Below, piece by piece: positions 4,500 through 24,129 of a DNA stretch of 32,000 bases (position 1 is the stretch's first letter; every line of letters begins with the position of its first letter). The notes below the pieces were generated by a model. It worked only from the letters and a program-made list of their open reading frames with translations. It did no database searches and was not told where the DNA came from. The DNA is from Nostoc sp. NMS9. Lineage in GTDB: Bacteria > Cyanobacteriota > Cyanobacteriia > Cyanobacteriales > Nostocaceae. Position numbers and translations under genes: made by a program. The DNA is taken from contig NZ_JABXKL010000029.1 in the NCBI RefSeq assembly GCF_017114995.1, forward strand, positions 18,872-50,871, given 5' to 3'.

Positions 4500-6068
4500 T
4501 TACAACTCACGCTTGGCTTTTTCCAATTGTATTAGCGCTTTTTCGTAATCATCAATCAGTTCTTGTTCCAGAAAAAGATTAGCTGCTTGCTGAAAATCCT
4601 TGATAGCAGCTTCTCTATTTCTAAGTTTGGCATAAGCCGCACCACGATTTCCGTAGGCTTTGGCATAATCTGGCTTGTAGGTAATAGCAAGTGTGTAATC
4701 TGCGATCGCTCCTTCAAAGTCTTTGAGCCTATAGTGAGCTAATCCTCGGTTTAGGTAGGTATTGGGGCGTTTTGGCTCAAACTTCAAAGCTTGATTGAAA
4801 TCCAAGATCGCTTCTTGTTGTTGACCTGAAAAACTCAGCAAGCGACCTCGGTTATTGAGCGCTGAAGCTGGCCCTGGTTCTAGATTAATAACCTGCGAAT
4901 AGTCTGCGATCGCCCCATCCGAATCTCCGATTTCAGCACGGATAATAGCGCGGTTGTAATAAGCATTTGCATATTTAGGATTGATTTTGATCGCATGGGT
5001 ATAGTCTGCGATCGCACCCTTCAAATCTCCCATTTCATGCTGAATCAGTCCTCTTTGGAAATAGGCATCAGCATTTTCAGAATTTGCTTTGAGTGCTTGG
5101 TTGTAGGCTATTACTGCACCTTGGCGATCGCCAGCCTCATACTTAACTAGCCCCTGGGAATAAGGATCGATGGATATTGCTTCGGGAGTTTCTATGACCG
5201 AATTATCTAACTGCAAATCAGCTTTCTTCAGAGCAATTTTAGGTAATTGCTCAAGAAAGGTAGTGATGGGAATAGCTGAATTAAACCCTGTTTTGATGAG
5301 ATTATCCTCAGAACTATCACTTTTTGAGGAAGTTGTGGTTTTGACCATGCCTACATTAGTGTCGCCTCCCTGTCCATGAATGCCTACAACTCGACCTGAA
5401 ACGTCAAAAACAGGGCCGCCGCTCATCCCTTTCCAAGTAGGGGCAGTGTAGTGAATAGCATACCCTTGTGAACGGGCTGGATTGAAGCTAGACACATCGC
5501 CCCGCGAAAATTCTGCTGTTCTATTAGTCGGGTCTTCAAAGGCAGGAAAGCCACAGACAAAAATCATAGAAGGCACTGTGATTTGAGGGATATTTGCCAG
5601 GGTCGCCACTGTATAGTTCTTTGGGCTGCGAAATTTGACAATAGCTAGATCGGGATAATTGGCATCAGTTTGCAAACGATTAACTTCCTCAACAGGATAG
5701 TTTTCGTCTTTGTTTATTTTAACTCTGTAGCTACGATCGGTGTCTCGAACTACATGATTTGCAGTTAGAACGGTGTAAATATCCCCTTGTTTGGCAATAA
5801 TTACTCCAGAACCACCCTCATCTTCAGCAGCATTGACCTGAACTGTCACTTGATCCGCAAGATTTTTAATCCGAGTGTCAGTTTGGATTACAGCAGCTTG
5901 AGTATACATTGCAATCACACCGGTAATGCTAAGTACTCCAGTAAATAGTAGATAATAACTGTACTTAATTAGATGTTGCATTGTGTAAGGATTTAGTGTA
6001 TAAAAAACAACATCCAATTGGGCATTCCACCAGTATAACCACTGCCCATTACACTTATCTAGCGACAT
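4500..6068 (-). CDS. Membrane-anchored trypsin-like (S1/Trypsin_2) serine protease fused to C-terminal TPR repeats
   Basis: Full triad context: TANHVV (His), DLAIVKF (Asp), GMSGGPVFD (Ser). The C-terminal half has about six TPR units (AIADYxxAIxxNPxxAxAYxNRG). The more likely start is Met30 (ATG at 5981-5979), directly before the hydrophobic anchor YYLLFTGVLSITGVIAMY. Confidence 0.85.
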   Translation of the reverse strand: MSLDKCNGQWLYWWNAQLDVVFYTLNPYTMQHLIKYSYYLLFTGVLSITGVIAMYTQAAVIQTDTRIKNLADQVTVQVNAAEDEGGSGVIIAKQGDIYTVLTANHVVRDTDRSYRVKINKDENYPVEEVNRLQTDANYPDLAIVKFRSPKNYTVATLANIPQITVPSMIFVCGFPAFEDPTNRTAEFSRGDVSSFNPARSQGYAIHYTAPTWKGMSGGPVFDVSGRVVGIHGQGGDTNVGMVKTTTSSKSDSSEDNLIKTGFNSAIPITTFLEQLPKIALKKADLQLDNSVIETPEAISIDPYSQGLVKYEAGDRQGAVIAYNQALKANSENADAYFQRGLIQHEMGDLKGAIADYTHAIKINPKYANAYYNRAIIRAEIGDSDGAIADYSQVINLEPGPASALNNRGRLLSFSGQQQEAILDFNQALKFEPKRPNTYLNRGLAHYRLKDFEGAIADYTLAITYKPDYAKAYGNRGAAYAKLRNREAAIKDFQQAANLFLEQELIDDYEKALIQLEKAKREL

Positions 6069-6524: not shown

Positions 6525-8093
6525 TCACATCTCAGAACCAATGTGAATGCGATCCTCTACTTCCGCAAATTTTTCCTGTGCCTGTTGTTCAGTACTCAAT
6601 AGTGAAACGACAATCGCCACAATAAACGCCAGTGGGATACTGATTAATCCAGGATTTTTTAGCGGAAAGGGTGCAGAAGCGTGCTTGAGAATTGTAACTT
6701 GAATAGTAGGTGACAAATAAATCAGCACCAAAGATGAGACAGTACCTACTAACATACTCGCAACCGCACCGTTGGTAGTGAAGCGTCGCCAAAGCATTGA
6801 TAAGAGCAACGCTGGAAAATTTGCACTCGCAGCGATCGCAAATGCTAAACCTACCATATAGGCTACATTTTGTCCTTTAAACAAGATGCCCAGGAATATC
6901 GCTACTAACCCCAAAAGCATTGTCGCACCGCGAGCCACCTTCAGCTGTTCTGACTCGTCGGCATGGCCAGAGCGCACCACATTCACCCACAAATCGTGGG
7001 ACAATGCAGCTGCACCTGAGAGTGTCAACCCTGCGACAACTGCCAAAATCGTCGCAAAGGAAACAGCAGCAATAAAGCCTAAGAAAGCATCACCACCGAG
7101 AAATTCTGCCAACATCGGCGCAGCCATATTACCACCAGTACCAATTTGCTTGATGGCATCTTGACCTACTAGCACCATCGCTCCAAAACCCAGAATGAAG
7201 GTAAGGAGATAAAAAACGCCAATAATAGCTGTGGCATAAGTAACAGAGAGCCGCGCTGCTTTAGCGTCGGGTACTGTGTAGAAACGCATTAGGATGTGGG
7301 GTAATCCAGCAGTGCCGAACATCAACGACATCCCTAAAGAGATAGCATCAAAGGGATCGGAAACCAGTTTGCCTGGAGCTAATACACCTGTATACTTCTG
7401 GGATGCAGCAGCGAAAAGAGCGATCGGGTTAAAGCCAAATCGTGCCAGTACCAAGATAGCTAGTAAGACAGTTCCGCCAAGCAACAAAACTGCTTTGATA
7501 ATTTGTACCCAAGTGGTGGCAATCATCCCGCCAAAAATCACATAAGCCATCATCACACAACCGACGATGACCACAGCTAATTCATAATCAAAACCAAACA
7601 GTAGTTTGATTAGCTCACCAGCACCTACCATCTGGGCAATTAAGTAAAAGCTAATTACTACCAGCGTTCCAATCGCAGAGGCGATACGTACAGGTTTTTG
7701 CTGCAAGCGATAAGCCACTACATCGGCAAAGGTGTATTTACCTAAGTTACGTAATGGTTCGGCAATTAGAAACATAACAATCGGCCAGCCCACCAGAAAG
7801 CCGATAGAATAAATTAAGCCATCAAAGCCGTTGAGTGCCACCAGCCCAGCTATACCTAAAAAGCTAGCTGCACTCATAAAGTCTCCTGCTAGGGCCAGCC
7901 CATTTTGGAAACCGCTGATCTTACCGCCAGCTGTATAGAACTGTGCAGTATTTTTGGTGAGCTTTGCCGCCCAATAGGTAATGCCTAGAGAACTTACAAC
8001 AAACAGAAAGAAGAAAGCGATCGCTAACGGGTTAAACTTACCAAGACTAGTAATATCCGCCGCTAGTGGCAGATCGAACCACACACTATTCAT
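6525..8093 (-). CDS. actP: Cation/acetate symporter ActP (sodium:solute symporter family)
   Basis: 522 aa with about 13-14 hydrophobic helices. The N-terminal region [33 protein letters not shown] is typical of ActP/SSF. It lies immediately downstream of a DUF485/YjcH gene, as in the enterobacterial yjcH-actP arrangement. Confidence 0.9.
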
Positions 8094-19153: not shown

Positions 19154-19543
19154 ATGAAAAACAAAGTATTGTTTGGCGCTATATTCATGGCAACTTGGGT
19201 AGGAACATTAATTCCTAGCGCTTTTGCTGCCTCACCCTGTTCTGTGGGACAAAAGGCTGAGGTTCTTTGGAAAGAAGCATGGTATCCAGCTACGGTACTT
19301 AAGGTTAATGATGAGAAGTGCTATATTACCTACGATGGTTATGATAGTTCCTGGAATGAATGGGTTGGCACTACACGCTTTCGGGCATCATTTCAAACTG
19401 GAGATGCAGTAAGAATTTTGTGGAAGGGAAAATGGTATCCAGGGCAGGTTTTAGAAGTTAGTAACGATCTTTATAAAATTACTTATGATGGCTACGATAG
19501 CTCTTGGGATGAGTGGGTTGAACCTGCAAGGGTAAGTAGATAG
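19154..19543 (+). CDS. Exported protein with two tandem Tudor/Agenet-like (SH3-fold) repeats
   Basis: Signal peptide MKNKVLFGAIFMATWVGTLIPSAFA. Two about 47-aa repeats: GQKAEVLWKEAWYPATVLKVNDEKCYITYDGYDSSWNEWV and GDAVRILWKGKWYPGQVLEVSNDLYKITYDGYDSSWDEWV. Confidence 0.7.
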   Translation: MKNKVLFGAIFMATWVGTLIPSAFAASPCSVGQKAEVLWKEAWYPATVLKVNDEKCYITYDGYDSSWNEWVGTTRFRASFQTGDAVRILWKGKWYPGQVLEVSNDLYKITYDGYDSSWDEWVEPARVSR

Positions 19544-19568: not shown

Positions 19569-19601
19569 AAGGGACGATTTCACTTGTTGGAGTCGTCCCT
19601 T
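19569..19601 (+). terminator. Rho-independent terminator after the Tudor-like gene
   Basis: Stem aagggacga / tcgtccctt (9 bp), 15-nt loop, followed by the T-rich stretch aaattgttttataattt. Confidence 0.6.
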
Positions 19602-19685: not shown

Positions 19686-20078
19686 GTGTATTTTGGCAAA
19701 CTTATGGAGCCAGTATCACTCACCGCAGCTGCGATCGCCACTTTGGTAATCACCAAAGCCTTTGAAAAAACTGGTGAAATCATCGGCGAAAAGGCTTGGG
19801 ATGAAGGCGAAAAATTGTTAGTTCTGCTCAAACGCAAGGAACCTAGCACGGCGAAGGTTATCGAACAGGCTAAAACACAACCTTTAGATTATGGTCAAGC
19901 TTATCTTATTGGGCAGCAGGTAGAGGAAGCGGCAAAGAAAGATGATGAAATTGCTCAAGCTGTCGCAGCATTGGCTAAAGAAGCTCAACCGCAATTGACT
20001 CAAACTATTGAAAACTATAAAGGGATAATCATTAAAGGCGGAACTAATACTGTTTCTGGCAATACCTTTAACTTCTGA
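19686..20078 (+). CDS. Helical N-terminal (effector-like) domain, in frame with the downstream NB-ARC gene
   Basis: The track start is GTG 19686, but ATG 19704 is more likely. Hydrophobic first helix EPVSLTAAAIATLVITKAF, then charged helices, then a G/N/T-rich tail GIIIKGGTNTVSGNTFNF. It ends at TGA 20076-20078, which is in the same frame as ORF 20139..22736. Confidence 0.6.
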   Translation: MYFGKLMEPVSLTAAAIATLVITKAFEKTGEIIGEKAWDEGEKLLVLLKRKEPSTAKVIEQAKTQPLDYGQAYLIGQQVEEAAKKDDEIAQAVAALAKEAQPQLTQTIENYKGIIIKGGTNTVSGNTFNF

Positions 20079-20138
20079 CTACAGTCGCCCGAACGGGAAC
20101 GGGTAAAGTCAAATCCCTCTACTGAAATACCGCAAAAT

Positions 20139-22736
20139 TTGCCCCTGAGTGGGGTGGTGGAATTTATTGGACGTGAAGAAGAATTGCAAAATCTTCACCA
20201 ACTTTTGCAGGATAAAAGACAAGTTGCGATCGCAGCTATTTCTGGTATGGGTGGAGTTGGTAAAACAGAACTCGCCCTACAATATGCCATCCAGCAACGC
20301 AAAACATATAACGGTGGGCTTTGCTGGTTGCTACCAAAAACTGGGGATATGGGCATTCAAGTTGTGCAGTTTGCGAGAACGCAGCTTGATTTAAAGCCGC
20401 CAGAAGATTTTGATATACTCGCCCAAGTGCAATTCTGTTGGCGGCGTTGGCGTGAGGGCGAGGTGCTGCTAGTGCTGGATGATGTCAGCGACTACGAGCA
20501 AGTTAAGCCTTATCTACCGTCGTCATCTTCTCGGTTTAAAGTGTTGATGACTACGCGCCAGAAGCTGGGACGCATCGCACAATTATCTTTGGATGTGCTG
20601 CAACCAGAGGCGGCGCTGGAGTTATTAAAGTCTTTACTCAAAGAAACACCGGGGCGAATTGAAAAAGAATTAGCTTTAGCAAATCAGTTGTGTGAATGGC
20701 TGGGATATTTACCTTTGGGTGTGGAATTAGTAGGGCGCTATCTGGCGTGGAAACAGGATTTATCTTTAGCAGAAATGTTGCGGCGGTTGGAGAACAAGCG
20801 ATTAGATGAGCGTTCCCTCTCTAAATCTAAGTCGGAAGCCGATATGACAGCACAACGTGGTGTGTTAGCAGCTTTTGAGTTGAGTTGGCAGGAATTAGAG
20901 GACGACGATAAACAATTGGGCTGTTTATTGAGTTTATTTGCCGCCGCACCCATACCTTGGAAGTTGGTGGAACAGTGTCTACCAGAAGAAGATGCCGAAG
21001 ATTTAGAGGAAATTAGAGATTATAGCCTGCTGAATCTGCATTTACTCCAGCGCAAAGGTGAGGGAATCTATCAACTACATCCACTGTTGCGGGAGTTTTT
21101 TCAATATAAGCTTACAGGTTTAGAACAGGCAGAGGAATTTAAGCGATCGCTTTGTCGGGTAATGGTAGCGATCGCCAAAGATATTTCTGAAACTCCCACC
21201 CTTGAGCAAATCACCATTGTCTCTCCGGTCATACCTCATATAGCTGAGGTAGCGAAGAATCTGATTCAATACGTCAGCGATGATGATTTAATTTGGGCAT
21301 TCGTCGGAAACGCTCGATTTTACGATGGTCGAGGGTTGTATAACCAAGCTTTCCCTTGGTACAAGCAGTGTCTAGAAGTTACCAAAAAACGCTTAGGAGA
21401 GGAACACCCATTTGTTGCAGAAAGCCTCAACAACCTAGCATTACTCTACAACTCCCAGGGCAGATACAGCGAAGCAGAACCCCTTTTAATTCAAGCATTG
21501 GCACTCAGGCGCAAGTTGCTGGGAGAGGAACATCCAGATGTCGCCGTTAGCCTCAACAATCTAGCGGGACTCTACAGATATCAAGGCAGATACAGCGAAG
21601 CCAAACCCCTTTACATCCAAGCTTTAGGACTCTGGCGCAAGCTGCTGGGAGAAGAACATCCATCTGTCGCACGTAGCCTAAACAACCTAGCGGCATTGTA
21701 CGTATCTCAAGGCAGATACAGCGAAGCCGAACCCCTTTACATCCAAGCATTGGCACTCAGGCGCAAACTGCTGGGAGAAGAACATCCAGATGTCGCACTT
21801 AACCTCAACAACCTAGCAAGACTCTACGACTGCCAAGGCAGATACAGCGAAGCCGAACCCCTCTACATCCAAGCATTGGCACTCAGGCGCAAACTGCTGG
21901 GAGAAGAACATCCATCTGTCGCACTTAGCCTCAACAACCTAGCGAGACTCTACGAATCCCAAAGCAGATACAGCGAAGCCGAACCCCTTTTAATCCAAGC
22001 TTTGGCACTTAGGCACCAACTGCTGGGAGCAGAACATCCAGATGTCGCCGTTAGCCTCAACAACCTAGCGTTACTCTACTACTCCCAAGACAGATACAGC
22101 GAAGCCGAACCTCTTTTAATTCAAGCTTTGGCACTCTGGCGCAAGCTGCTGGGAGAAGAACATCCAGATGTCGCTACTAGCCTCAACAACCTAGCGTTAT
22201 TCTACGACTCCCAAGGCAGATACAGCGAAGCTGAACCCTTGTACATCGAAGCTTTGGCACTCAGCCGTCAACTGCTGGGAGAAGAACATCCAGATGTCGC
22301 CTCTAGCCTCAACAACCTAGCGGCATTCTACGACTCCCAAGGCAGATACAGCGAAGCCGAACCCCTTTACATCCAAGCTTTGGCACTCAGGCGTCAACTG
22401 CTGGGAGAAGAACACCCATTTGTTGCAGAAAGCCTCAACAATCTAGCAGTACTCTACTTTTCTCAAGGCAGATACAGCGAAGCCGAAACCCTTTTAATCC
22501 AAGCATTGGCGCTCAGGCGCAAACTGCTGGGAGAAAAACATCCAGATGTCGCCTGTAGCCTCAACAATATGGCAAAACTCTACTACTTACAAGGACGTTA
22601 CACCGAAGTTGAACCGTTGTATTTGCAAGCTTTGGAGATTTTTGAGCAACGATTAGGGGTAAGTCATTCCCGCACTATCAAGTGTTGTGAAAATTTGGCA
22701 AGTCTTCGCGATCGCCTCCCCCAAAATCCAGAATAA
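20139..22736 (+). CDS. STAND NTPase: NB-ARC domain plus TPR (kinesin-light-chain type, 42-aa) repeat sensor
   Basis: FIGREEEL lead-in, Walker A GMGGVGKTELA, Walker B LLVLDDV, helical/winged-helix region, then ten 42-aa TPR units. The only start available is TTG or GTG, and no RBS is seen. Confidence 0.9.
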   Translation: MPLSGVVEFIGREEELQNLHQLLQDKRQVAIAAISGMGGVGKTELALQYAIQQRKTYNGGLCWLLPKTGDMGIQVVQFARTQLDLKPPEDFDILAQVQFCWRRWREGEVLLVLDDVSDYEQVKPYLPSSSSRFKVLMTTRQKLGRIAQLSLDVLQPEAALELLKSLLKETPGRIEKELALANQLCEWLGYLPLGVELVGRYLAWKQDLSLAEMLRRLENKRLDERSLSKSKSEADMTAQRGVLAAFELSWQELEDDDKQLGCLLSLFAAAPIPWKLVEQCLPEEDAEDLEEIRDYSLLNLHLLQRKGEGIYQLHPLLREFFQYKLTGLEQAEEFKRSLCRVMVAIAKDISETPTLEQITIVSPVIPHIAEVAKNLIQYVSDDDLIWAFVGNARFYDGRGLYNQAFPWYKQCLEVTKKRLGEEHPFVAESLNNLALLYNSQGRYSEAEPLLIQALALRRKLLGEEHPDVAVSLNNLAGLYRYQGRYSEAKPLYIQALGLWRKLLGEEHPSVARSLNNLAALYVSQGRYSEAEPLYIQALALRRKLLGEEHPDVALNLNNLARLYDCQGRYSEAEPLYIQALALRRKLLGEEHPSVALSLNNLARLYESQSRYSEAEPLLIQALALRHQLLGAEHPDVAVSLNNLALLYYSQDRYSEAEPLLIQALALWRKLLGEEHPDVATSLNNLALFYDSQGRYSEAEPLYIEALALSRQLLGEEHPDVASSLNNLAAFYDSQGRYSEAEPLYIQALALRRQLLGEEHPFVAESLNNLAVLYFSQGRYSEAETLLIQALALRRKLLGEKHPDVACSLNNMAKLYYLQGRYTEVEPLYLQALEIFEQRLGVSHSRTIKCCENLASLRDRLPQNPE
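21402..22661 (+). repeat. Ten tandem 126-bp coding repeats (TPR units) with very high nucleotide identity
   Basis: gaacacccatttgttgcagaaagcctcaaca occurs at 21402 and 22410, exactly 8 x 126 bp apart. Units 3 and 4 share an 81-nt stretch differing at one base. Confidence 0.9.
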
Positions 22737-22841
22737 GCTAGTTTTGTGCAAAGCCTACCGTGATAAAACTGAAAAGCGCGATCGCCTAGACTAAAATTCA
22801 TATTGAACTAAGTAAAAATGCCATTCGACTTACTCAAAATG

Positions 22842-23098
22842 AGCTTTTACTTTCTCAAAATAAGCTTTTACTTTCTCAAACCCCAGTTTGCTTTCTCATT
22901 TTGGTGTTTTCCGCAAGCAAAATAAGCTTTTACTTATTCAAACTCCAGTTTGCTTACTCATTTTGGTGTTTTCCGCAAGCAAAAGGAGCTTTTACTTACT
23001 CAAACCCCAGTTTGCTTTCTCATTTTGGTGTTTTCCGCAAGCAAAAGGAGCTTTTACTTTCTCAAACTCCAGTTTGCTTTCTCATTTGAGTAATTCAC
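22842..23098. repeat. 62-bp tandem repeat array (about 3.8 units plus a 21-bp partial unit)
   Basis: The unit start agcttttact occurs at 22863, 22925, 22987 and 23049 (period 62), plus a partial unit at 22842. Units differ at only 3-5 positions and there are no unique spacers. Confidence 0.85.
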
Positions 23099-23301
23099 GC
23101 ATTCATTTTGGTATATCATTGAGCCGAAAGCTGGCGATGCTTTAGAAAAGAAGTGTAAATCGACAAGCGATGACTACGACAGCTACGCCTACGCATAGAG
23201 CGTATTGCTAGAGGCGATCGCTTTTCTTTAGATAAAGTTGTAAAAAAAAGCTATATGACCAGGGTTTATCTAGATACCAGTATTTATTTTAGAGGTAGAC
23301 A

Positions 23302-23529
23302 ATGGAAATTAAAGTTATTAACAAACAAGAAAATTTGCAAGAAGTTATGCAGGTTTTGCTCACTCATTTAGAACCATCGAAGGTAATGAAATTTTGGGCA
23401 GCTTGTAAACTAAGTGAAGGTGACTATTTGCAAGTTAAAGAAAAAGTATTTGCTAAAGAAACGGTTGCTAGCTTATATGCCAAAATCAAAGAATATCAAG
23501 ATGGTGATAGTAAGCAATCGCTAGAATGA
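23302..23529 (+). CDS. Small hypothetical protein (75 aa)
   Basis: ATG start. Helical and charged. Ends 30 bp before the Uma2 gene on the same strand. No motif recognised. Confidence 0.5.
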   Translation: MEIKVINKQENLQEVMQVLLTHLEPSKVMKFWAACKLSEGDYLQVKEKVFAKETVASLYAKIKEYQDGDSKQSLE

Positions 23530-23559
23530 AGCTTATATTCCTGAATTAAAGTTTCAACT

Positions 23560-24129
23560 ATGATAGCCTCGCCCCAACAAAACTATCTTACTGCTGAAGA
23601 ATACCTCCAAATGGAGGAACAGAGCGATATCAAGCATGAATATATAGACGGCTATATTTACGCAATGGCTGAGGTGCTTGATGCACATGTAACCATCGCT
23701 GGAAACCTTGCTACCTTCCTCCGTAATCATGTGCGTGGCTCTGGTTGTCGTGTTTACATCGCTGACATGAAAGCCAGAATCGAAACTCTGAACCGCTTTT
23801 ATTATCCCGATGTGATGGTTACTTGCGATCGACGAGATCGAGAAACACCAGGTTATAAAAGATTTCCCTGTTTAATTGTCGAAGTTTTATCTAATTCTAC
23901 CGAAGCCTTTGACTGGGGCGACAAATTCGCCGATTATCAAACACTGGAAAGTCTGCAAGAGTATGTTTTAATTAATACAAAACGTCAGCGAGTTGAGTGT
24001 TTTCGACTTAATGAGCAAGGGTTGTGGGTTTTACAATCCTACACATCAGAGCATCAATCATTTCGACTCAACAGCGTGGATTTTGAGGAAACAATGGCAG
24101 CACTCTACGAAGATGTAGTTTTTGAATAA
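23560..24129 (+). CDS. Uma2-family (DUF820) putative restriction-endonuclease-fold protein
   Basis: Typical N-terminus LTAEEYLQMEEQSDIKHEYIDGYIYAMA, and a PD-(D/E)xK-like core YYPDVMV...LIVEVLS. Confidence 0.85.
   Translation: MIASPQQNYLTAEEYLQMEEQSDIKHEYIDGYIYAMAEVLDAHVTIAGNLATFLRNHVRGSGCRVYIADMKARIETLNRFYYPDVMVTCDRRDRETPGYKRFPCLIVEVLSNSTEAFDWGDKFADYQTLESLQEYVLINTKRQRVECFRLNEQGLWVLQSYTSEHQSFRLNSVDFEETMAALYEDVVFE

Follow-up and report, generated by a model that had tools for sequence, protein, structure and literature searches.

The stretch analysed here is 32,000 nucleotides (nt) of DNA from Nostoc sp. NMS9 (NCBI RefSeq assembly GCF_017114995.1, contig NZ_JABXKL010000029.1, positions 18,872 to 50,871 of the forward strand), hereafter called the window, with positions counted from its first letter. 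It carries a locus in which a small protein, composed of a Bell helical domain and a BASS7 amyloid-signalling motif, is followed behind a single TGA stop codon by a NOD-like receptor (NLR) of the signal transduction ATPases with numerous domains (STAND) type. A preliminary description, made from the sequence alone, had placed the open reading frames (ORFs) 19686..20078 and 20139..22736 in one reading frame with TGA 20076-20078 as the only stop between them, and this was confirmed on the sequence. The 60 nt 3' of the TGA are stop-free, and their translation, LQSPERERVKSNPSTEIPQNLPLSG, continues into VVEFIGREEEL and on to the P-loop GMGGVGKT (20244-20267). For the small ORF the frame and the stop were assigned correctly, while the start was not: family alignments place it at ATG 19704 (MEPVS...), in agreement with the start of all of the at least 177 homologues, and not at GTG 19686. 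The features of the locus, with the evidence on which each was delimited, are as follows.

19569..19601, plus strand: terminator-like hairpin and T-run (14-pair stem, T-rich tail), which closes the upstream gene 19154-19543 and forms the 5' boundary of the Bell/NLR unit.
19704..20075, plus strand: Bell-BASS7 ORF of 124 codons with start ATG 19704 (MEPVSLTAAAIATLVITKAF...), from homologues.
19704..19994, plus strand: Bell helical domain, residues 1-97, from the AlphaFold2 (AF2) model and the MEPIS-type motif.
20004..20075, plus strand: BASS7 amyloid-signalling motif TIENYKGIIIKGGTNTVSGNTFNF, residues 101-124, from the match to the bass_07 rows of Dyrka Table S2.
20076..20081, plus strand: in-frame UGA followed by CUA (UGA-C), the proposed read-through site, from conservation across loci.
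20087..20104, plus strand: RNA hairpin with stem GCCCG/CGGGU (20087-20091 with 20100-20104) and loop AACGGGAA, from compensatory changes.
20079..20150, plus strand: linker codons (LQSPERERVKSNPSTEIPQNLPLSG) in which synonymous sites vary unusually little, from synonymous differences and third-position identity.
20139..20159, plus strand: candidate internal starts TTG 20139, GTG 20154 and GTG 20157, unconserved in the start-codon survey of loci.
20079..22733, plus strand: in-frame extension with linker, NB-ARC (about 20175-20849) and TPR sensor, from PF00931 and TPR_12.
21423..22567, plus strand: TPR array as a 126-bp tandem repeat of 9.1 copies, from repeat analysis.
22734..22736, plus strand: stop codon of the NLR ORF, from the ORF list.

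For comparison, 80 loci encoding relatives of the small protein were taken from one-genome-per-species contigs, giving a set of 81 with the window; individual loci are cited below with an L number and individual proteins with a P number. In the window, the in-frame extension past the TGA amounts to 885 codons. Among 376 ordinary ORFs of the same loci, the open stretch that continues in frame after the stop had a median of 8 codons and a 99th percentile of 96, so that the frame shared by the two parts lies far beyond chance.

The small protein is, by homology, a Bell-domain protein, since it is 90% identical to RCJ33357.1 of Nostoc punctiforme NIES-2108 (locus L014). That protein serves as the Nostoc ('Nosto') Bell-domain exemplar in Fig. 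1C of Dyrka et al. (2020; bioRxiv 10.1101/2020.01.06.895854), and the resemblance to Bell-type death domains proposed in the preliminary description is thereby borne out. Several features of the family are present, namely a length of 124 amino acids (aa), the start MEPVSLTAAAIATLVITKAF with Glu at position 2, a hydrophobic first helix and a bundle of 5-6 helices; a 'MEPIS' N-terminal motif has been described (bioRxiv 10.1101/2024.11.07.622273). In the AF2 model, helices span residues 8-16, 19-23, 29-45, 47-57, 63-79 and 81-97 with a predicted local distance difference test score (pLDDT) of 70-89, and the tail, residues 100-124, is disordered with a pLDDT <50. At least 177 close homologues were found, and the 120 listed are stand-alone proteins of 87-163 aa with a conserved MEP N-terminus. 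Clustering at 50% gave 473 representatives; among those listed, nearly all are stand-alone and roughly 85-175 aa long. Pfam and NCBIfam scans of the small protein returned no match, and no significant hit came from a profile search of PDB sequences. Foldseek of the AF2 model against the PDB gave no hit at E <1, with Rx-CC at rank 24 (E = 8.4). The tail had been noted earlier as rich in G, N and T, although its nature was overlooked: ENYKGIIIKGGTNTVSGNTFNF fits the BASS7 consensus, for which the bass_07 rows of Table S2 in Dyrka et al. read ENWQGINIKGGTNTINNNTFNF and similar. By this match, the tail is a BASS7 amyloid-signalling motif.

A STAND NTPase of the NB-ARC type, with about ten units of TPR_12/TPR_10, is encoded by the downstream part (Pfam: PF00931, 2.5e-17; TPR_12, 5.5e-167). 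The Walker A P-loop GMGGVGKT (20244-20267) and the C-terminal repeat sensor are both present, and together with the Bell family N-terminal piece they make up the tripartite layout of helical domain, NB-ARC and TPR that had been read from the sequence at the outset. The 885-codon extension is intact, and the ratio of non-synonymous to synonymous divergence (dN/dS) of the NB-ARC N-terminus is 0.14. In orthologues the NLR extension ranges from 436 to 1053 codons, even among close Nostoc relatives that are syntenic and 90-95% identical in the flanks (L001-L025), which indicates that the TPR repeat number changes quickly. The NLR part also scores 379 bits against NCBIfam NF040586 (FxSxx-COOH system TPR protein; cut-off 300). 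An FxSxx-COOH system was considered and rejected: no radical-SAM/SPASM partner lies nearby, the neighbouring genes checked for one encoding esterases, LPG_synthase_TM, an Agenet/Tudor protein, Uma2, an aspartate kinase and a Ser/Thr kinase, and the C-terminus of the small protein is NTFNF rather than FxSxx. The match can be put down solely to the NB-ARC/TPR_12 architecture that the proteins share.

Across the 81 loci, a TGA followed by a long in-frame P-loop NTPase extension was found in 54, and in two more that carry a premature stop inside the Bell ORF. Five loci have a TGA with an in-frame extension of another kind (PsbP-like in L068, transmembrane (TM)/low-complexity in L032 and L035, CHASE2 in L075, and L066, which is cut by the contig end), and eight have a TGA with a shorter in-frame extension, including the frameshifted NLRs L026 and L042 and the unknown domains of 124-133 aa in L071-L073. 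The Bell ORF ends in TAA or TAG in 11 loci and is truncated in one. The in-frame class was taken as 59 loci, comprising the 54 with a P-loop NTPase, the two with a premature Bell stop and three with another domain and no start codon at the junction. The in-frame stop is TGA in 59/59 of them, and the next codon is CTA, one of six possible Leu codons, in about 55. The class extends through Nostoc, Aulosira, Calothrix, Dendronalium, Amazonocrinis and Komarekiella to the more distant Coleofasciculus, Floridaenema, Scytonematopsis and Waterburya, with Bell identity down to 40-50%.

Alignment of these loci, which the preliminary description had recommended as a check, showed that in the in-frame class the two parts stay in frame across the TGA and that no sense codon takes its place in any of the 81. 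Likewise, no Bell-NB-ARC fusion was found among the 150 family representatives listed, and a chimeric motif-linker-NB-ARC query for sense-codon versions recovered none, returning only canonical BASS7-NLR and effector-associated domain (EAD)-NLR N-termini. Among the matches listed from a 14-mer metagenome scan for TGACTACAGTCGCC, all were chance matches and none had an upstream Bell ORF.

The sequence around the stop is conserved as well. The junction TT[CT] TGA CTA [CA]AG TCG CC is nearly invariant, also in the loci from Coleofasciculus, Floridaenema, Microseira and Scytonematopsis. Among the stops of ordinary genes in these loci, TGA is the least frequent (63/376, 17%), and the base that follows it is C less often than any other (8/63, 13%). 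From this comparison across loci, the UGA-CUA context is under selection. UGA-C is said, in work by Poole and colleagues from 1995, to be the weakest termination signal in E. coli. In eukaryotic systems, UGA-CUA raises read-through (PMC9841425). Four members of the family are decaying copies, L020 and L029 through a premature TAA in the Bell ORF and L026 and L042 through NLR frameshifts; the TGA-C junction is retained in all four, with CTA in three and CAG in L042.

Between the TGA and the FxGR motif upstream of the P-loop lie 28, 26 or 25 codons (linkers of 84, 78 and 75 nt). Every difference in linker length is a multiple of 3 nt, and the frame is thus maintained. In L001 (6001-6460), the Bell sequence is 100% identical to that of the window and the locus is syntenic, but the linker has 25 codons (LKSPEGESILSTEIPQNLPLSG) as against 28 in the window. 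Both linker types also stand behind near-identical Bell genes elsewhere (L007 vs L008). Such exchange of linkers behind identical or near-identical Bell genes suggests recombination or gene conversion at the junction.

With regard to how translation of the NLR part could begin, the absence of an ATG from the downstream ORF, which offers just TTG 20139 or GTG 20154/20157, was verified: no ATG precedes the Met codon of the P-loop. The earlier reading that a GGAG-type ribosome binding site is lacking also holds, as none occurs in ACTGAAATACCGCAA, the sequence 5' of the TTG. Two separately initiated genes would be expected to share a conserved start and ribosome binding site for the NB-ARC part, yet neither a conserved NLR start codon nor a Shine-Dalgarno (SD)-like site was found among the 56 loci surveyed. 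The TTG, which encodes the Leu of NLP, is present in 40/56 and is replaced in the others by synonymous TTA, CTC or CTT, with the change to TTA seen in at least 9 loci; only GTG is available in 9/56, and no ATG, GTG or TTG precedes FxGR in 5/56. In L077 (Coleofasciculus) there is no ATG, GTG, TTG, CTG, ATA or ATC between the TGA and the P-loop Met, and the stretch from FxGR to the P-loop, compared with the window, shows a proportion of synonymous differences (pS) of 0.91 vs a proportion of non-synonymous differences (pN) of 0.22. For the 16 codons that precede the first canonical start in L033, L052 and L056, pN is 0.05-0.12 vs a pS of 0.36-0.44. We infer that the NLR segments upstream of any start in these four loci are translated and can be entered only through the TGA.

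Two further observations concern starts at or near the junction. The NCBI annotation of P0281 begins at the linker TTG, with MPLSGVVEF.... In L074 (6451-6459) and L075 (3840-3848), an ATG or GTG comes immediately after the TGA (TGA ATG ACT..., TGA GTG GCT...); in these two loci, where the downstream products are a 99-aa protein and a CHASE2 protein, respectively, the arrangement looks like ordinary stop-start coupling, and it may represent an evolutionary intermediate.

The identity of the stop was found to track the architecture of the locus. In the loci with TAA or TAG, the next long ORF lies in another frame in 11/11, and in 10/11 this ORF is an NLR that starts at an ATG of its own and repeats the Bell-side motif at its N-terminus. 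For instance, in L067 the Bell protein ends ...TIENWKGINIKGGNSTINNPNFNF* and the NLR starts MTTENWNGINIKGGNPVINISQSERAKLNPPKHLPYQGVRNFVGRGEEL, and L069, L049/L065, L062 and L036-38/L044/L057 are arranged in the same manner. Judged by sequence, the TAA/TAG loci with a motif-bearing NLR are canonical Bell-BASS/BASS-NLR pairs. No second motif copy was found 3' of the TGA in the window or the other TGA-class loci, whereas the canonical relatives L067, L069 and P0299 have a second copy on the NLR side. Motif, linker and NB-ARC of the hypothetical read-through product are collinear with the L067 NLR in an alignment that begins at residue 2 (E = 1e-26), and P0299 reads MINENSQGINVKGGTNTVTGNTFNF-HSSEKP...FVGRE. 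Other homologues of the NB-ARC N-terminal region carry EAD-type N-terminal domains (PF19954, PF19959). Next to such homologues, an NLR that began at MPLSG would have an unusually bare N-terminus, and the receptor of the window would bear a BASS7 motif only via read-through. The association of an in-frame partner with TGA (59 loci) and of an out-of-frame partner with TAA or TAG (11/11) lends support to read-through.

Signals at the RNA level were observed immediately 3' of the TGA. Over the first 20 codons after it, pS is 0.13, compared with 0.44-0.54 in the flanks, and dN/dS is ~1. Third-position identity reaches 0.85-0.92 over 20076-20150 vs 0.55-0.78 elsewhere. The combination of a third-position peak with a dN/dS near 1 points to constraint at the nucleotide level rather than at the peptide level. 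A conserved hairpin was detected in a gapless alignment of 44 junctions of one linker type only, in which a 5-bp stem pairs alignment columns 12-16 with 25-29, enclosing an 8-nt loop after an 8-nt spacer behind the UGA. The stem is paired in 205/205 cells; shuffled alignments gave 92.5%, with 0/500 reaching 100%, and slid controls gave 5-37%. Stem energies range from -5.4 to -9.5 kcal/mol. Compensatory changes occur in 17 cells, pair 13-28 being CG in 35 and UA in 6 sequences and pair 15-26 being CG in 18, UG in 12, UA in 7 and GC in 4, for which about three compensatory events are estimated. Stem pairing is preserved by amino-acid-changing substitutions (Pro to Ser, Arg to Pro or Gln, Val to Thr), which accounts for the linker dN/dS of ~1. 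Tentatively, a pseudoknot may also form between loop positions 20-22 and CCC at 40-42, where pairing is 95% with 6 cells broken, although the background in slid controls is high.

Taken together, these sequence-based results favour programmed UGA read-through as the probable mode of expression, in which one message would yield abundant free Bell-BASS7 and rare Bell-BASS7-NLR. Read-through of the TGA was one of the possibilities raised in the preliminary description, and it is preferred here over a plain two-gene split on account of the stop identity, the missing starts, the collinearity with canonical receptors, the selection on the NLR part and the hairpin. The loci combine a conserved UGA stop in a weak context with a 3' element and, in L077, L033, L052 and L056, with a start-less ORF under selection. 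Furthermore, the BASS7 tail provides a functional rationale for read-through. In the mechanism that we infer, most ribosomes would stop at UGA 20076 and release the 124-aa Bell-BASS7 effector. A minority would cross the weak UGA-CUA, probably by means of near-cognate tRNA-Trp and aided by the hairpin 8 nt downstream, giving a product of about 1010 aa with the order Bell-BASS7-linker-NB-ARC-TPR and the junction GGTNTVSGNTFNF-X-LQSPER, where X is the presumed inserted residue. If HET-S/NWD2 and Bab/Agp are a guide, a ligand bound by the TPR sensor would cause the NB-ARC domains to oligomerize, and the N-terminal BASS7 segments clustered in this way would nucleate an amyloid fold. The nucleus would then template the pool of free Bell-BASS7, and the conversion is predicted to free the Bell N-terminal helix, resulting in membrane damage and cell death.

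Several considerations weigh against read-through. Programmed read-through is rare in chromosomal bacterial genes. The loci are related by descent, and counts such as 59/59 do not represent independent events. The hairpin is short, with 5 bp, and a competing fold of lower energy exists in the window; single-sequence fold z-scores were not significant, and RNAalifold applied to 51 mixed junction sequences found no structure. In the 16 loci with a 25-codon linker a different hairpin forms, ~6 nt after the UGA, and is kept less consistently. In addition, the dN/dS of ~1 means that the first 20 linker codons carry no coding signal at the protein level, and TTG or GTG codons precede FxGR in 51/56 loci, so that independent initiation of the NLR is possible for the window.

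The last two observations also speak for a two-gene operon without recoding, a reading that we regard as unlikely on balance. According to it, the Bell-BASS7 gene would end at the TGA and the NLR would start at TTG 20139 or GTG 20154/20157, perhaps by termination coupling; the shared frame would be left over from an old fusion that a nonsense mutation had divided, and the conserved 60-70 nt would be the NLR initiation region. Relatives are annotated in this manner by NCBI (P0281), Bell and NLR are usually separate, tightly spaced genes, and L074 and L075 place an ATG or GTG directly after the TGA. Moreover, SD sequences are absent from many cyanobacterial genes. However, the strict use of TGA-C, never TAA or TAG, and the restriction of indels to multiples of three are left unexplained by such an operon. 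It is also difficult to reconcile with L077, L033, L052, L056 and L079, which have no start before conserved NB-ARC sequence under purifying selection, and with the free exchange of the TTG for synonymous TTA described above. Finally, every out-of-frame relative retains a motif copy, and the operon reading offers no account of how an NLR lacking a BASS motif or other N-terminal domain would signal to a BASS7 effector.

A second alternative is that the UGA encodes selenocysteine (Sec), with the downstream hairpin acting as a bacterial selenocysteine insertion sequence (SECIS). A conserved hairpin shortly 3' of an in-frame UGA, accompanied by synonymous constraint, does give a SECIS-like layout. 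The stem, however, has just 5 bp, the loop lacks the GU that known SECIS loops carry, and no Rfam SECIS match was obtained in the window. The site itself falls in a disordered linker without a redox role, and canonical homologues have His or nothing at the UGA position and not Cys (P0299, L067). As the surveyed selD-bearing cyanobacteria have also been reported as not decoding Sec (PMC1273633), this alternative was rejected as very improbable.

The remaining explanation, in which a fused Bell-NLR gene was recently inactivated by a nonsense mutation or the TGA is a sequencing error, had been listed first in the preliminary description and can draw on the decaying copies L020, L029, L026 and L042, but it is effectively refuted by the presence of the same TGA in 59 independent assemblies from many genera with Bell identity down to 40-50%, by the intact extension and by the dN/dS of 0.14 in the NB-ARC N-terminus.

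The closest known systems are the Bell/BASS-NLR pairs (Dyrka et al., 2020), with which the present locus shares the Bell family, the BASS7 tail, the NB-ARC/TPR partner and the collinear arrangement of adjacent parts. In those pairs the NLR has its own ATG and an N-terminal BASS copy, whereas the NLR part described here has neither and is joined in frame to the Bell-side motif via the conserved UGA-CUA. In the same survey, 346 matched pairs were reported for 1816 Bell C-termini, RCJ33357.1 lay outside the matched pairs, and BASS7 was listed only 8 times (bioRxiv 10.1101/2020.01.06.895854). Considering that the exemplar is unmatched and BASS7 so sparsely listed, the TGA form may be the commoner BASS7 arrangement in Nostoc. 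Experiments have demonstrated both amyloid templating and abortive infection against phage for the Bab/Agp pair of E. coli ECOR25 (BASS11; bioRxiv 10.1101/2024.11.07.622273). Bab/Agp and the fungal HET-S/NWD2 likewise use a small helical membrane-targeting effector with a C-terminal amyloid motif, templated by a receptor with the same motif, and Bab/Agp shares the 'MEPIS'-type N-terminus. Both differ in consisting of two separately translated proteins with two motif copies and no recoding.

The layout of the predicted read-through product, with a membrane-targeting helical domain, an NTPase and a repeat sensor, is also that of all-in-one NLRs such as the fungal HeLo-NLRs, the plant coiled-coil (CC)-NLR resistosomes and the MEPIS-bearing Avs2 and bNACHT proteins, in which, by contrast, a stop codon, a free effector pool and an inter-domain amyloid motif are all absent. 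As for the recoding element, a leaky stop fixes the ratio of short to extended product in murine leukaemia virus (MuLV) gag-pol (UAG, 8-nt spacer, pseudoknot), in Q-beta A1 (UGA) and at eukaryotic UGA-CUA(G) sites (PMC9841425). The likeness to these cases extends to the UGA-C/CUA context, a structure ~8 nt downstream and synonymous constraint on the 3' side. These precedents come from viruses or eukaryotes, and the context rules derive from measurements in eukaryotes and E. coli rather than cyanobacteria; the present locus, moreover, has a short hairpin and at most a tentative pseudoknot. Neither a stop codon nor read-through is mentioned in the Bell/BASS literature that was text-searched, nor in wider searches combining them with Bell, BASS and NLR terms. 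Hence, Bell/BASS-NLR signalling as such is known, and the joining of effector and receptor via a conserved leaky stop is undescribed in the literature searched.

Beyond the single locus, there seems to be a reasonable case for a widespread class of cyanobacterial NLRs that use UGA-CUA, an 8-nt spacer and a hairpin to derive from one ORF both an abundant Bell effector and a rare receptor with the same motif. If true, this would be, as far as found, the first recoding in prokaryotic NLR or amyloid signalling, and it would join the very few conserved cases of read-through on bacterial chromosomes. Amyloid signalling needs matching motifs in receptor and effector, and a single encoding shared by read-through would guarantee the match. 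Such an arrangement would, in addition, set the ratio of effector to receptor at a high value, couple the expression of both, and could account for some of the Bell proteins without a matching NLR-side motif (346 pairs vs 1816 Bell C-termini). In more general terms, programmed read-through in bacteria would gain a conserved example whose context is defined and whose RNA element is small. For genome annotation, the consequence would be that such NLRs are given a wrong start, as in P0281, whose annotated start is the TTG inside the conserved linker.

The TGA-CTA/CTG junction was also found to precede in-frame modules other than NB-ARC. These comprise an nSTAND1-WD40 protein in L070 (6001-8811), placed after the Gly/Val-rich IAQVLGGIVVYVSGGQAIFGA, a TM segment with a PsbP-like domain in L068 (6001-7155), TM and Pro/Ser-rich segments in L032 (6001-7131) and L035, and the unknown domains of 124-133 aa in L071-L073. 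The occurrence of nSTAND1-WD40, PsbP-like and TM proteins and of unknown domains of about 125 aa behind the same junction points to a portable 'read-through joint'. In L078 (6433-9237), a remnant junction (TGA CTA GAG TCT ACT GAA CAG TAA TGA) is followed ~330 nt later by an 823-codon ORF. This ORF starts with a second Bell-like domain (...AILIFTRYFEKTGENIGE...), which identifies L078 as a fused Bell-X gene beside a free Bell gene. P0243 (700 aa), with a Bell-like domain and HEAT-like repeats, resembles the fused protein of L078.

In the neighbourhood of the locus, the upstream gene at 19154-19543 encodes a protein of 129 aa whose N-terminus resembles a signal peptide and which contains two Agenet/Tudor-like repeats (PF05641, 1.5e-10), an unusual finding in a bacterium. 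Rfam and tRNA scans for RNA genes in the window were empty. Just 3' of the NLR stop, at 22828-23087, lie non-coding tandem repeats with a 62-bp unit in 3.7 copies (93% matches) and a 21-bp unit in 2.5 copies; they are partly kept in the orthologous locus L006, and the ORFs at 22888-23145 are artefacts of these repeats. Further downstream, 23302-24129 contains a 75-aa ORF without a family match and then a Uma2-family putative endonuclease (PF05685, 5e-42), beyond which an aspartate kinase and a Ser/Thr kinase-TPR protein are encoded. On the minus strand, 4500-6068 and 6525-8093 are adjoining ORFs of exactly 522 aa each, possibly tandem paralogues. HIP1-type palindromes (GCGATCGC), typical of cyanobacterial genomes, occur at 19728-19735 within the Bell coding sequence and at 20226-20233 within that of the NB-ARC domain.

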